A stretch of DNA of 64,000 nt from Mobula hypostoma (lineage: Eukaryota): contig NC_086107.1 of NCBI RefSeq assembly GCF_963921235.1, positions 97,280,001 through 97,344,000 on the forward strand, read 5' to 3'. The number at the start of each line of letters is the position of its first letter. Within the stretch, counting starts at the first letter, position 1. Positions 769 through 13,521 of this stretch are shown piece by piece. The notes under the pieces are model-generated. The model made no database searches, was not told the DNA's origin, and was given only the letters and a program-made list of their open reading frames with translations. The translations under genes and the position numbers were made by a program.

Positions 769-810
769 GATTCCTGGCTACTTCCTTGATTTAATTTTGT
801 TCTTTAAGAG

Positions 811-1596
811 ATAGAAACATAGAAACATAGAAAATAGGTGCAGGAGTAGGCCATTCGGCCCTTCAAGCCTGCACTGCCATTCAGTATGATCATGGCTGAT
901 CATCCAACTTTCTCTCCATACCCCCTGATCCCTTTAGCCACAAGGGCCATATCTAACTCCCTCTTAAATATAGCCAATGAACTGGCCTCAACTGTTTCCT
1001 GTGGCAGAGAATTCCACAGATTCACCACTCTCTGTGTGAAGAAGTTTTTCCTCATCTCGGTCCTAAAAGGCTTCCCCTTTATCCTTAAACTGTGACCCCT
1101 CGTTCTGGACTTCCCCAACATTGGGAACAATCTTCCTGCATCTAGCCTGTCCAATCCCTTTAGAATTTTATACGTTTCAATAAGATCCCCCCCCACCAAT
1201 CTTCTAAATTCCAGCGAGTATAAGCCTAATCGATCCAGTCTTTCATCATGTGAAAGTCCTGCCACCCCAGGAATCAATCTGGTGAACCTTCTTTGTACTC
1301 CCTCTATGGCAAGAATGTCTTTCCTCAGATTAGGGTACCAAAACTGCACACAATACTCCAGGTGTGGTCTCACCAAGGCCTTGTACAACTGCAGTAGTAC
1401 CTCCCTGCTCCTGTACTCGAATCCTCTTGCTATGAGTGCCAACATACCATTCGCTTTTTTCACCACCTGCTGTACCTGCATGCCCACTTTCAATGACTGG
1501 TGTACAATGACACCCAGGTCTCGTTGCACCTCCCCTTTTCCTAATTGGCCACTATTCAGATAATAATCTGTTTTCCTGTTTTTACCACCAAAGTGG
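811..1596 (-). mobile_element. CR1 LINE, 5'-truncated 3' end (RT C-terminus + 3' UTR); resumes at 2579-2591 after a Rex1 insertion
   Basis: ORF 900..1742(-) contains HFGGKN...RDLGV...LYKALVRPHLEYCVQFW...RGHSL...FFTQRVVNLWNSLP, with an (ATAGAAAC)n tail at 811. Bases 2579-2591 read KCEV on the minus strand, the motif that precedes (I)HFG in CR1. Confidence 0.92.
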
Positions 1597-2578
1597 TTGG
1601 CAGACCACAGTACGTGTGCTTGCAACACTGTGTGTCCGACACAGTGATCAGCAGCACTGGGGCTCCACAGGGGACTGTCTTGTCTCCCTTTCTCTTCACT
1701 ATTTACACCTCGGACTTCAACTACTGCACAGAGTCTTGTCATCTTCAGAAGTTTTCGGATGACTCTGCCATAGTTGGATGCATCAGCAAGGGAGATGAGG
1801 CTGAGTACAGGGCTACGGTAGGAAACTTTGTCACATGGTGTGAGCAGAATTATCTGCAGCTTAATGTGAAAAAGACTAAGGAGCTGGTGGTAGACCTGAG
1901 GAGAGCTAAGGTACCGGTGACCCCTGTTTCCATCCAGGGGGTCAGTGTGGACATGGTGGAGGATTACAAATACCTGGGGATACGAATTGACAATAAACTG
2001 GACTGGTCAAAGAACACTGAGGCTGTCTACAAGAAGGGCCAGAGCCGCCTCCACCTCCCGAGGAGACCGAGGTCCCCCAACATCTGTCAGATGATGCCGA
2101 GGACGCTCCACGAGTCTGCGGTGGCCAGCGCCACCATGCCCGCCGCCGCATGCTGGGGCAGCAGGCCGAAGGCAGCAGACACCAACAGAACCAACAAACT
2201 CATTCGCAAGGCCAGTGGTGCCATGGGGACAGAACTGGACTCCCTGACGGCGGTGTATGAAAAGAGGACGCCACCCAAGCTGCACGCCACCCCGGACAAC
2301 GTCTCCCATCCACCACACAACGAACTGGCAGCCAGACACCCACCCCACCGAGACACAACACTGAGCGCCACAGGAAGCCAACCCCGCCTATGGCCAGCAA
2401 ACTCCACAACTCCTCCCCTGGCCGGTCCTGGACCCACCTCCCAGCATAATTTACATATTACCATTCAACCACTTATGGTTTCATTACTACTCAATTATTC
2501 ACGGTGCAACTGCAACGAACACCAATTTCCCTCAGGATCAATAAAGTATGACTATGACGACTATGACTACTATGACTA
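1597..2578 (+). mobile_element. Rex1/Babar-type LINE, 5'-truncated, 3' half T>C hypermutated
   Basis: RT motifs GAPQGTVLSPFLFTIYT, KFSDDSAIVG, LNVKKTKELVVD, YKYLG; AATAAA at 2540 and (ACTATG)n tail. Confidence 0.9.
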
Positions 2579-2699
2579 AACCTCACATTTAGAAGCTTTG
2601 GGGATTCTCCTAGAGCAACCTCATGCCTTTTCTCAGTCCTCCTAATTTGCTTCTCAAGTGTTCTCTAGCATTTCTTATACTACCAAATAAACAGCTGCC

Positions 2700-2738
2700 C
2701 TGATTAACCAATGGCACAGTTAACCAGATTCCACTGTA
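2700..2738. mobile_element. Probable Tigger/pogo-like DNA transposon end (possibly belonging with the relic at 1-500)
   Basis: Ends ...GTTAACCAGATTCCACTG followed by TA, a Tigger-like CAGTGGAATC terminus. The partner end is not identified. Confidence 0.35.
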
Positions 2739-3744
2739 TATATAAAAAAAATTTAAATGAATTAAGTAGTGCAAAAAGAGAGCAAAAACAGAGTGAGGTA
2801 GTGTTCGTGGGTTTGCTGTTGAGTCAGAAATCTGTTGACCGAGGGGAATAAGCGACTTCTAAAGCTTTGAGTGTGTGTCTTCTGGCTCCTGAACCTCCTC
2901 TCTGATGGTGGCTATGAGAAGAGGGTTTGTCCTGGGTGATGGAGGTCCTTAATGACAGATGCCGCCTTCTGTAGGTATCCCCAATGCTGGAGAGGCTAGT
3001 GACCATGATGGAACCCCTTCCTTCTGGTGGTTTCAGTTCCTTTCTACTGTAGCCATTTAAACTTAGTGCAATCCCAGCAAATGAATGAATTAACAGAGAT
3101 TCCAAGCTGACAGGGAGCTTTAGGAGAGTAAATAGGAGGTTTTTACCCGCACATCTGAGGATCTGGATGCCGAGTTAGTAGAAACCTTTGGGTGCTGGAA
3201 GAGGAGGAAATTAACAGGAGGTGGGACTCATTTATATGAATATAACTCTTATAAAAGTCAGGAGGAGTACTTGTCAACCTGAGCTCACCCTGTCATTCAA
3301 CAAGCTGCTGGAGGAACTGCGTGGTCAAGCTGCAACCATGGAGGACAAGAGATGGCCCACATTTCAGCTGGGGGCCCTGACCCACTGAGTCCCTCCAGCA
3401 GTTTGTTGTTTGTTTCAGGTTCCAGCATCCACAGCCTCTTGTGTCTTCTCCATTCAACAAGATCACGGCCGATTTACCTCAACCCTCACTTTTCTGGACT
3501 ATCCCAGTATCTTCCAATTCCTCTGACATCCATAAATCTATCAACCTCGAGATTTAACTCCAACAGTGGCTGAGGCTCCAGAACTACCAGGATAAGTAAT
3601 GCTAAAGGAAACTTACCTCAGCATTAAGTGGCTTCCCCTCAATCAGGGGAAACACCCTCTTTATCCTCAACTCATTGAATCCTCTATCTCAGGGCCTAAT
3701 AACCTCCCGTGACCTGTGCACTTTCATGAACTAATTCAAGAATC

Positions 3745-13281: not shown

Positions 13282-13521
13282 GCTGGCTGGTGGCATAGTG
13301 GCATCAGCGCTGGACTTCAGAGCGAAGGCTCCTGAGTTTGAATCCAGCCTGCTCCTGAGTTTGAATCCAGCCGGCTCCCTCGCATGCTTTCCATCCGTGC
13401 TGGGTTGAGTGTTGAGCTAACAACTCGGCCTTGTAACAATAAGAAAGCCTGCTAAAAAAACACTGTCATGACGGCATCCCGATGACTCCACTCGGAGTTA
13501 AGGGCTTTCTTCTTCTTTCTT
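13282..13521 (+). mobile_element. Full-length tRNA-derived SINE with duplicated B box
   Basis: A box TGGCATAGTGG (13291). GCTCCTGAGTTTGAATCCAGCC occurs twice (13328, 13351). (TTC)n tail; degenerate ~16-bp TSD. Confidence 0.85.

Follow-up and report, generated by a model that had tools for sequence, protein, structure and literature searches.

The window, that is, the whole 64-kb stretch of DNA that was analysed, carries at positions 811–2681 a block made of two LINE fragments and set into an older repeat, Z. From its alignment to a second locus, C2, and from junction words shared with it, the whole block would be a minus-strand DNA copy of a CR1-sense RNA from C2, whose 3′ end lies at 811 and whose 5′ end is cut short at 2681. 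A piece of the target repeat Z lies to the left at 779–810, and Z continues to the right at 2683–2751, as seen in alignments to Z paralogues. Scans of 400–2800 for tRNA genes and Rfam families gave no match.

The left part of the block (811–1596, minus strand) is the 3′ fragment of a CR1-like LINE and comprises the end of ORF2, which forms an open frame on that strand, and the 3′ UTR. The genome holds 1890 candidate copies of this fragment, and the 39 non-self matches that were scored are 96–97% identical to it. The window, C2 and the family majority agree at 728 of 772 aligned sites; changes private to the window in this 786-nt part include 1 T>C and 2 A>G. A Pfam scan of the minus-strand ORF2 end gave no match. 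In CR1 sense the fragment terminates in a microsatellite, (TTTCTATG)n, at 811–837 on the minus strand. Just upstream of this octamer tail a hairpin is predicted (−26.5 kcal/mol, z −2.25), 6 of 200 shuffled sequences being equally good. PMC8665684, citing Suh 2015, states that CR1 retrotransposition uses a 3′ hairpin and an 8-bp microsatellite, the amniote octamer being ATTCTRTG. The likeness to this mechanism lies in the tail, which agrees with the octamer at 7 of 8 positions, in the predicted hairpin and in the 5′ truncation of the copy. The template differs, since here it would consist of a CR1 3′ fragment joined to a Rex1 in antisense and to a foreign 5′ flank of 90 nt.

A 5′-truncated Rex1-like LINE fragment of 982 bp occupies 1597–2578 on the plus strand, antisense to the CR1 fragment, and has the same junction in C2. 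The Rex1 clade name comes from a preliminary description of this DNA and has been tested in part: the fragment contains a reverse-transcriptase domain (Pfam RVT_1, E 2.3e-8, residues 15–130) and its 3′ end is a short tandem repeat, a tail of GACTAT-like units at 2551–2578. The genome contains 6681 candidate Rex1-like copies, 100% matches among them. Beyond the Rex1-like fragment, the last 13 nt of the CR1 fragment (AACCTCACATTTA, 2579–2591, minus strand) mark its 5′ truncation point. They are followed at 2592–2681, on the same strand, by 90 nt of non-CR1 sequence, which alignments to copies of a further repeat, X, identify as a probably transduced 5′ flank from C2. The preliminary description had placed the CR1 break at 1596 and its resumption at 2579–2591. 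The CR1 family bears this out, as 29 of 29 copies read GTGG|ATAAC at the break point and 27 of the 29 continue as CR1; intact copies read GTGG|ATAACCTCACATTTATCC.

The source locus and the insertion site

A search for an unedited source locus through the CR1/Rex1 junctions had been proposed, and it led to C2 (G000:C2:124659100-124661900), which has identical junctions and flank and retains the T's that are changed in the window. Each of the two 28-nt junction words, with up to 3 mismatches allowed, occurs exactly twice in the 3.48-Gb assembly, once in the window and once in C2; reversed control words gave 0 matches in the same assembly. These pattern searches superseded DNA queries of 120 nt across the junctions, one of which, with the best 40 of 778 candidates scored, gave the window alone, while another search gave C2 at 80%. 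Window 820–2681 aligns to C2loc 569–2482 with 1678 identities in 1942 aligned positions. The homology starts within the CR1 3′ microsatellite (811–820) and ends at 2681. The two loci have 9 states in common against the family majority (shared derived sites), the 13-nt CR1 remnant is identical in C2, and the window tail equals that of C2 plus one octamer unit. At C2, copies of X align on both sides of the CR1 fragment, where a short GAA/TAGAA duplication is found, and 14 nt of X are present that the window does not have. Against the window, X copies align on one side only, at 2606–2683. The truncation of CR1 at 2591 and the insertion of Rex1 predate the retrocopy, and both occurred at C2.

Outside the edited zone C2 has 39 private substitutions and the window 13 (binomial p 4e-4), an asymmetry that a simple parent–daughter clock does not predict. 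Selection bias was considered as its source and rejected. The ratio is alike in the part that was used for choosing the family copies (5 vs 15) and in the unused part (6 vs 14).

The target of the insertion is preserved in paralogues of the surrounding repeat. In Z copy L085rc, 313–345 corresponds to window 779–810 and 351–497 to window 2683–2848, and in the empty site the equivalents of 810 and 2683 are separated by 5 nt (TTGTC). No target-site duplication was found at the window insertion; instead, about 5 nt of target (TTGTC) were lost. CR1 insertions frequently lack target-site duplications. Parent locus and empty target have both been identified, and the copy ends at a LINE tail. Taken together, the limits of the homology, the empty Z site and the presence of X on both sides of CR1 at C2 support the view that 811–2681 is a single retrocopy of a probable read-through transcript from C2, with the CR1 tail as the site of priming. 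Its cargo would be the antisense Rex1 and the 90 nt of 5′ flank, which the shared alignment to C2 also supports. Retrotransposition through the CR1 3′ end, as earlier suggested, is thereby upheld, but not the end of the mobilised unit at 2591, because the shared block runs on to 2681. Copying by a CR1 reverse transcriptase/endonuclease is putative and suggested by the tail. Since the CR1 fragment is a 3′ part without a full ORF2, such an enzyme would have acted in trans.

Strand, density and context of the substitutions

The Rex1-like fragment had been described as reading normally to about 2038 and as rich in T>C changes thereafter, and comparison with the column majority of 29 genomic copies gives the same picture. 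Over 1597–2035 the window is identical to the majority at 435 of 437 sites. Over 2036–2440 identity falls to 325 of 403, the differences being 62 T>C, 8 G>A and 8 others, and over 2441–2578 T>C makes up 12 of the 18 differences. The 29 other copies and the C2 paralogue have 0–7 T>C each, compared with 74 in the window. The effect on coding is seen in the peptide KGQSRLHLPRRPRSPNICQMMPRTLHESAVASATMPAAACWG (window:2034-2159), which in C2 is KGQSHLYFLRRLRSFNICRTMLRMFYEPVVASAIMFAVVCWG; the family motif given earlier for this region was thus essentially right. A recount of T residues reproduced exactly the earlier figures of 90 in 360 nt (1681–2040) and 35 in 360 nt (2041–2400).

Within 2039–2561, 74 of 150 ancestral T's are changed to C, against 1 of 132 A's changed to G. 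The zone has a sharp left edge, with 0 of 106 T's changed in 1597–2038 but 9 of the 12 T's over the 40 nt that follow. The cluster of about 480 nt proposed earlier is real, and its extent is set here to 2039–2513 (~475 nt), with 73 sites at which RNA-sense A>G on the minus strand appears as plus-strand T>C. One further, doubtful edited site lies outside this zone at 2561 and brings the total to 74. In the core, 2039–2440, 62 of 101 sites are changed, i.e. 61% of the RNA-sense A's.

The preliminary description had also noted that 3 of the 35 surviving T's of 2041–2400 precede A or T. The count is correct (G 19, C 13, A 2, T 1; in the control 1681–2040 the base after T is G 31, C 21, T 20, A 18), but the measure is confounded, because edited T's alter their own neighbours. 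The bias was therefore recomputed with ancestral neighbours. In the core the fraction of A's changed is 10/10 after U, 17/19 after A, 23/43 after C and 12/29 after G. W versus S at −1 gives 27/29 versus 35/72 (p 1.4e-5), so that the neighbour bias claimed before is present in the core; with the weaker 3′ zone added (to 2513) it is not significant (p 0.16). On the 3′ side the fractions are 0.52 for G, 0.59 for C, 0.70 for A and 0.71 for U, with no preference for G. On the CR1-sense RNA strand the changes read as A>G, and their pattern, with one strand affected, a dense cluster between clean flanks and the 5′ order U>A>C>G, supports an assignment to ADAR-type editing. In PMC3113232 (Eggington et al. 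2011), hyper-editing of long dsRNA in vitro by human ADAR1 and ADAR2 reaches about 50–60% of adenosines, with the 5′ neighbour order U>A>C>G. The window matches this footprint in its single-strand A>G, in the edited share of about 60% over several hundred nt and in the 5′ order, and differs in that the footprint is carried by genomic DNA instead of RNA or cDNA and shows no 3′ G preference. Human ADAR1 and ADAR2 favour a 3′ G, unlike the core of the window. The same paper reports no 3′ preference for Xenopus ADAR1, so that the missing 3′ G preference is not decisive for a non-mammal. Adenosine-deaminase exons (PF02137) scored above cut-off at 7 genomic loci, a count in which ADAR, ADAT1 and ADAD are taken together.

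No inverted Rex1 piece that could pair in cis was found within the retrocopy or in the rest of the 64-kb window. When the 8.3-kb C2 locus was compared by BLAST with its own sequence and with an unedited Rex1 copy, none came to light within 568 nt to the left (downstream) or 5.8 kb to the right (upstream) of the composite. The great number and near-identity of sense Rex1 copies make sense Rex1 RNA a plausible candidate for a partner in trans. The sharp left edge at 2039 is not accounted for if that partner was a full-length Rex1 RNA.

The presence of the edited form in independent reads had been set as a check, and contigs from two run sets carry it. The read evidence consists of short contigs, and the first run, X1, is possibly the assembly's own sample; its contigs cover 2177–2550, 2540–2664 and 739–832, all with 0 differences. 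The other run, X5, bears another species label. One X5 contig covers 2040–2190 with 5 differences, of which the 4 listed are all in CpGs, and a second (2568–2712) spans the 2681/2682 boundary. Two further runs, X9 and X10, putatively of RNA, yielded nothing usable over the edited zone. Within the window, 7 of the 9 private G>A changes affect CpGs, and in 6 of these cases the C immediately before is an edited one. Decay at CpGs that the edits themselves created, together with the X5 contigs of a second species label, shows that the edited copy is old germline DNA.

A proposed history and its alternatives

The interpretation first put forward, that an ADAR-edited antisense Rex1 was mobilised by CR1, is supported, as its testable links all held. 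We consider it very probable that the block is a CR1-mediated retrocopy of an ADAR-edited C2 read-through RNA that was fixed in the germ line. The alignments show the opening of this history at C2, where a CR1-like LINE, 5′-truncated to ~0.8 kb, entered the older repeat X, and where the 982-bp 5′-truncated Rex1-like LINE then landed, in opposite orientation, 13 nt from the CR1 5′ end. A CR1-sense transcript, presumably starting in or upstream of X, would have run across the antisense Rex1 and finished with the hairpin and octamers of the CR1 3′ end. Of its antisense Rex1, about 475 nt may have paired with sense Rex1 RNA, and an ADAR-type deaminase would have turned about half of the A's there into inosine. 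With the CR1 tail as its priming site, a reverse transcriptase acting in trans, probably from CR1, would have started synthesis where repeat Z was nicked on contig C45, and would have read inosine as G. Copying would have reached 2681, and the product would have been joined with a loss of ~5 nt of target and no duplication. The structure and direction of the copy are seen directly in its alignment to C2, as are the strand on which the changes lie, their density and their context. Likewise, the read contigs and CpG changes show its final stage, germ-line fixation, after which decay began at the edit-created CpGs.

A retrocopy formed as proposed could instead owe its A>G changes to the reverse-transcription step, with no part for ADAR: the LINE reverse transcriptase may have misincorporated nucleotides from an unbalanced pool, or the template may have held some modified base that was not inosine. 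Template-reading errors would also lie on the template-sense strand, and the cis searches revealed no dsRNA partner. The explanation is nevertheless very unlikely, because the changes are limited to ~475 nt in the sole part of the RNA with abundant complementary transcripts, with no T changed upstream and a single T>C in the CR1 part, and because 61% conversion, with the 5′ neighbours ranked U>A>C>G, matches the ADAR footprint published in PMC3113232. Still less probable is a strand-specific mutation of the DNA after the copy arose, for example by error-prone repair converting WA to WG in the manner of polymerase eta. The hotspot of this polymerase is an A preceded by A or T, which is the favoured context on the minus strand. 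Against this stand the clean flanks around 62 changes at 101 sites in 400 nt, a density that to our knowledge exceeds every known polymerase error rate by far, and the exact coincidence of the mutated strand with the RNA-sense strand of the intermediate required by the retrocopy structure.

A segmental DNA duplication linking the two loci, with a T>C cluster formed without an RNA step, would agree with the lack of a target-site duplication and with the unequal numbers of private substitutions. One end of the block, however, lies inside the CR1 3′ microsatellite, with the repeat number altered, and the other is merely cut short. Nothing would make a DNA duplication stop at a LINE tail, and we give this explanation slighter credence again. 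An editing step on DNA has also to be weighed, as ADAR acts in vitro on the DNA strand of RNA:DNA hybrids, and editing of such a hybrid during target-primed reverse transcription would make a second RNA partner unnecessary. The first-strand cDNA is the plus strand, so that deamination of dA would give plus-strand A>G, yet this is seen at 1 of 132 sites; the probability of such a course is negligible. Barely credible, too, is an ordinary cause, namely a C-rich Rex1 subfamily, GC-biased conversion, recombination between subfamilies or an assembly error. The search for a C-rich subfamily found none, the best other match to 2036–2440 being 78% identical (best 40 of 3563 candidates scored). The T>C changes are not balanced by A>G (74/150 versus 1/132), the paralogue with the same junctions is unedited, and two run sets carry the edits.

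Possible germline editing and comparison with known systems

The usual view is that RNA editing leaves the genome unmarked. If CR1-mediated retrocopying of an edited RNA is correct, the retrocopy and its unedited parent would indicate that ADAR-type editing hit LINE-derived dsRNA in cells contributing to the germ line, that the 3′ end of a CR1-type element is by itself enough to mobilise foreign sequence, even another LINE in antisense, and that one event can set a sequence about 20% apart from its source. Our judgement is evenly balanced on the further claim that the locus is a direct, datable 'write-back' of A-to-I editing into a vertebrate germ line, in which, in germ cells, a CR1 read-through with antisense Rex1 paired with sense Rex1 RNA, was hyper-edited by ADAR and still served the CR1 machinery as a template. 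Were this true, ADAR editing would be no bar to CR1-type retrotransposition, a single step would yield a sequence ~20% diverged from its parent, and a defined sense Rex1 RNA of ~0.5 kb in the germ line would have ended where the zone sets in abruptly on its 5′ side. A 2016 review held the roles of ADAR editing in retrotransposon evolution to be still undetermined at that time (PMC4982230). Loci of this kind would make that role countable, as one-strand A>G clusters in retrocopies relative to their parents, and would show, site by site, the footprint that a non-mammalian ADAR leaves in vivo. A literature search, whose reach did not extend to the review of Knisbacher and Levanon (2015), turned up no report of this kind concerning a LINE-made retrocopy.

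A close parallel is offered by avian retroviruses with A-to-G hypermutation, RAV-1 (Felder et al. 1994) and avian leukosis virus (Hajjar and Linial 1995), as summarised in PMC8586724. There too, ADAR-type A>G clusters in RNA became DNA by reverse transcription, but the viruses are exogenous, whereas the window would hold a germline-fixed, LINE-made retrocopy of a host read-through transcript whose unedited parent is extant. The block also recalls deaminase hypermutation frozen in genomes in another form. APOBEC-edited retroelements fixed in mammalian genomes were reportedly described by Carmi, Church and Levanon in 2011, and they share with the window clusters of one type of change on one strand relative to the parent. 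They arise by C>U on minus-strand DNA (G>A), while the changes here would be A>I on RNA (A>G), with another enzyme family and another substrate. Finally, in LINE-1 5′ transduction flanking DNA reaches a new site within a read-through RNA that starts upstream of the element, as it would have done in the C2 transcript; in the window the element is CR1-type, the host is a non-mammal and the passenger includes another LINE family in antisense.

Substitution pattern in the Rex1-like piece

GC climbs from ~0.5 to 0.58-0.69 over 2041-2400 (120-nt windows) within the Rex1-like piece (1597-2578), and AT skew rises to +0.4 to +0.64. A recount reproduced the T depletion of the preliminary description (90/360 in 1681-2040 against 35/360 in 2041-2400), and its observation of T loss is confirmed as a whole. 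The base 3′ of the surviving T's in 2041-2400 is G in 19 cases, C in 13, A in 2 and T in 1. RVT_1 (Pfam) was detected on the Rex1-like frame; Rex1 and CR1 are provisional names, supported in part by this domain and by a CR1-type tail. Frame 1545-2579 (+) stays open for 344 codons across the edited zone and 3′ UTR because T>C strips the T needed by every stop codon, and is meaningless. A weak ALKBH8_N (PF09004) match, below threshold (E 0.0059, 16.6 bits, Pfam cut-off 21), lies at residues 136-169 of frame 1599-2579, directly past the RT domain in a stretch edited in the window.

Relatives of the 982-nt piece number in the thousands in the 3.48-Gb animal assembly G000 (6681 candidates, 40 scored), where the window is part of contig C45. 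Twenty-nine genomic copies were aligned, and the column majority (at least 20/29) served as outgroup only. Identity to this majority is 435/437 over 1597-2035 and 325/403 over 2036-2440, where the differences are 62 T>C, 8 G>A and 8 others; 12 of the 18 differences over 2441-2578 are T>C. In the same alignment the window carries 74 T>C changes, against 0-7 in C2 (a paralogue, see below) and in each of the 29 genomic copies. Ancestral T has become C at 74/150 sites of 2039-2561 and ancestral A has become G at 1/132; none of 106 upstream T's is changed. The last secure changed site is 2513, that at 2561 lying within the repeat tail.

The three-way comparison of window, C2 and family majority assigns these changes to the window. 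In the CR1 part, 728 sites are the same in all, 11 are private to the window, 29 private to C2 and 3 shared derived. The corresponding numbers are 408, 2, 10 and 0 for Rex1 1597-2035; 315, 75 (T>C 61, G>A 8), 10 and 2 for 2036-2440; and 100, 13 (T>C 11), 3 and 4 for 2441-2578. Outside the zone, private substitutions are more frequent in C2 (39 vs 13, p 4e-4). That this asymmetry is an artefact of family-copy choice was rejected on check; the substitution rates of the two loci differ. The excess in the CR1 part of C2 is in plus-strand C>T (11 vs 2 G>A), mostly non-CpG.

The unedited paralogue and the retrocopy

A 120-nt query over the 3′ junction gave one other match (80%), at G000:C2:124661416-124661538. 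The locus around it, C2 (G000:C2:124659100-124661900), aligns from its position 569 to 2482 with window 820-2681 (1678/1942). Common to C2 and the window are the CR1/Rex1 junction (GTGG followed by ATGGCAGACC and by TTGGCAGACC, respectively), the Rex1 tail with 13 nt of CR1 behind it, and the continuation (GAAGCTTTGGGGATTCTCC...). C2 retains its T's across 2036-2578, KGQSHLYFLRRLRSFNICRTMLRMFYEPVVASAIMFAVVCWG in C2 corresponding to KGQSRLHLPRRPRSPNICQMMPRTLHESAVASATMPAAACWG in the window. Since a similarity search over the 5′ junction overlooked C2, and hence was not exhaustive, two 28-nt junction patterns were searched with at most 3 mismatches. For each pattern the assembly has two occurrences and no more (window and C2), against 0 for the reversed controls. 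C2 is therefore an unedited locus with both junctions, such as the preliminary description had proposed to look for in the genome.

The CR1 break had been placed correctly. All 29 CR1-like copies retrieved with query 1297-1596 read ...CCACCAAAGTGG then ATAAC... at this point, and 27/29 continue as CR1; in the window the Rex1 piece follows GTGG, CR1 returns as AACCTCACATTTA (2579-2591), and family homology then stops. The CR1 copy L078 (G000:C36:148057400-148060699) stops at its 5′ side exactly where the CR1 of C2 and the window does (...ATAACCTCACATTTA, with unrelated sequence beyond), and L071 breaks 3 nt before that point; the common end could reflect a favoured site of truncation or a short subfamily. 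Three other CR1 copies (L053, L054, L055; contigs C13, C12), with near-identical substitution profiles and the same flanks over the 80 nt shown, are probably a recent segmental duplication. Eighteen nt of the C2 CR1 are missing from the window at 909/910; loose ends of other copies carry similar sequence there, so the deletion is private to the retrocopy.

The block common to both loci begins in the CR1 3′ tail and ends at 2681. To the left of the tail the loci are unrelated (window …TTGTTCTTTAAGAG, C2 …TTTTAATATATCTG), and the window has one octamer more. The CR1-sense tail, (TTTCTATG)n, agrees at 7/8 positions with the amniote CR1 octamer ATTCTRTG, and a hairpin is predicted upstream of it (-26.5 kcal/mol, z -2.25; 6/200 shuffles as good). 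Hairpin and octamer tail together form the 3′ structure that CR1 reverse transcriptase is considered to recognise (PMC8665684).

Two repeat families meet near the end of the block: X (2290 candidates) accounts for 2606-2681 and Z for 2683-2751. In L085rc, one of three Z copies fetched, 313-345 corresponds to window 779-810 and 351-497 to window 2683-2848. The two flanks thus lie 5 nt (TTGTC) apart in this empty copy, and the same continuity was judged by eye in L084rc and L083. Therefore 811-2681 entered Z as a single insertion; a small piece of the target was lost and none of it duplicated. At C2, two X copies align on either side of CR1 (L088rc 252-335 to C2 492-575, 341-774 to 2389-2838), so C2 is the original landing place of CR1 in X; a short GAA/TAGAA repeat stands at both CR1 ends. 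In the window X adjoins the 5′ end of CR1 alone. Most simply read, the block is a retrocopy of a CR1-sense C2 read-through RNA, which would have been reverse-transcribed from the CR1 tail and cut off at 2681, with 5′ transduction of 90 nt and the antisense Rex1 as passenger. The CR1 truncation and Rex1 insertion, previously placed in the window's own history, belong instead to C2.

Fourteen nt between two CTAG repeats, present in C2 and the X copies, are absent from the transduced X flank (2605/2606). The Z repeat that received the block holds a second, unrelated insertion at 499-778, since 498 and 779 are contiguous in Z copies. This insertion is rich in G+C, has a run of T's at 625-636 and is related to L006 and to window 13282-13431; ARAGORN and Rfam found nothing in it.

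Origin of the changes and neighbour context

Plus-strand T>C is minus-strand A>G, and it is the minus strand that corresponds to the RNA required by the retrocopy structure; this strand assignment had been proposed before, and the orientation puzzle is gone. Deamination of first-strand cDNA would yield plus-strand A>G, seen at 1/132 only, and is excluded. A C-rich Rex1 subfamily is ruled out as well, since the edited 405 nt have no close relative (top other match 78% among the best 40 of 3563 candidates scored). Nor does the G>A excess call for a second deaminase. The zone holds 9 G>A changes private to the window, 6 of them immediately 3′ of an edited C (TG>CG>CA) and 1 of an ancestral C; methylated CpGs are expected to decay in this way, and the edits created most of those concerned. 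The best explanation, and a very probable one, is a read-through RNA hyper-edited by ADAR and retro-copied by the CR1 machinery, an ADAR-type enzyme and CR1 reverse transcriptase being the presumed agents. The earlier interpretation is thus supported, with borders now at 811-2681.

The neighbour bias claimed previously had been counted on edited sequence and was confounded; it is kept in the core (2039-2440) with ancestral neighbours. There 62/101 adenosines are converted: 10/10 after U, 17/19 after A, 23/43 after C and 12/29 after G in RNA sense (W vs S p 1.4e-5; G vs non-G p 0.013). ADAR1 and ADAR2 are described as preferring 5′ U>A>C>G and editing 50-60% of adenosines in long duplexes (PMC3113232). 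Their 3′ G preference was not seen (G 0.52, C 0.59, A 0.70, U 0.71). Only about a third of sites are edited over 2441-2513, A/U contexts included, so that for 2039-2513 as a whole the 5′ bias loses significance (p 0.16). Both points speak against a simple ADAR fit. Adenosine-deaminase (PF02137) exons occur at 7 loci of the genome.

A search for inverted Rex1 pieces in the retrocopy, the rest of the 64-kb window and the surroundings of the composite at C2 (568 nt on its left, 5.8 kb on its right) found none. Many Rex1 copies show 100% identity in the stretches compared, which makes sense Rex1 RNA acting in trans a plausible partner. A full-length partner would not account for the sharp edge at 2039, and the partner is presumed to have been either a sense Rex1 transcript ~0.5 kb long or a Rex1 copy lying far off in cis.

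Precedents and presence in the germ line

The nearest genomic analogue is the APOBEC-edited retroelement fossils reportedly described by Carmi et al. in 2011. Edits fixed by reverse transcription have their closest precedent in the A-to-G hypermutated avian retroviruses, as presented in PMC8586724. ADAR roles in retrotransposon evolution had 'not yet been determined' according to a 2016 review (PMC4982230). Full-text searches of limited coverage yielded no ADAR fossil made by a LINE, fixed in the germ line and accompanied by its source locus; to that extent the present case may be new.

The edited form was also checked in sequencing runs, and contigs of two runs carry it. Those of X1 (organism A; possibly the sample behind the assembly itself) cover 739-832, 2177-2550 and 2540-2664 with 0 differences. 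A 151-nt contig from run X5, which bears a different species label, covers 2040-2190, a stretch with 25 edit sites, and differs at 5 positions; the 4 that are listed (2088, 2089, 2099, 2104) all lie in CpGs. A 145-nt X5 contig over 2568-2712 has 3 differences and spans 2681/2682, the short side being 31 nt. The edited insertion is thus common to two labelled taxa; with its edits, it is real, germ-line and not recent. Read depth over 2262-2474 is at single-copy level, the repeat parts reaching into millions.
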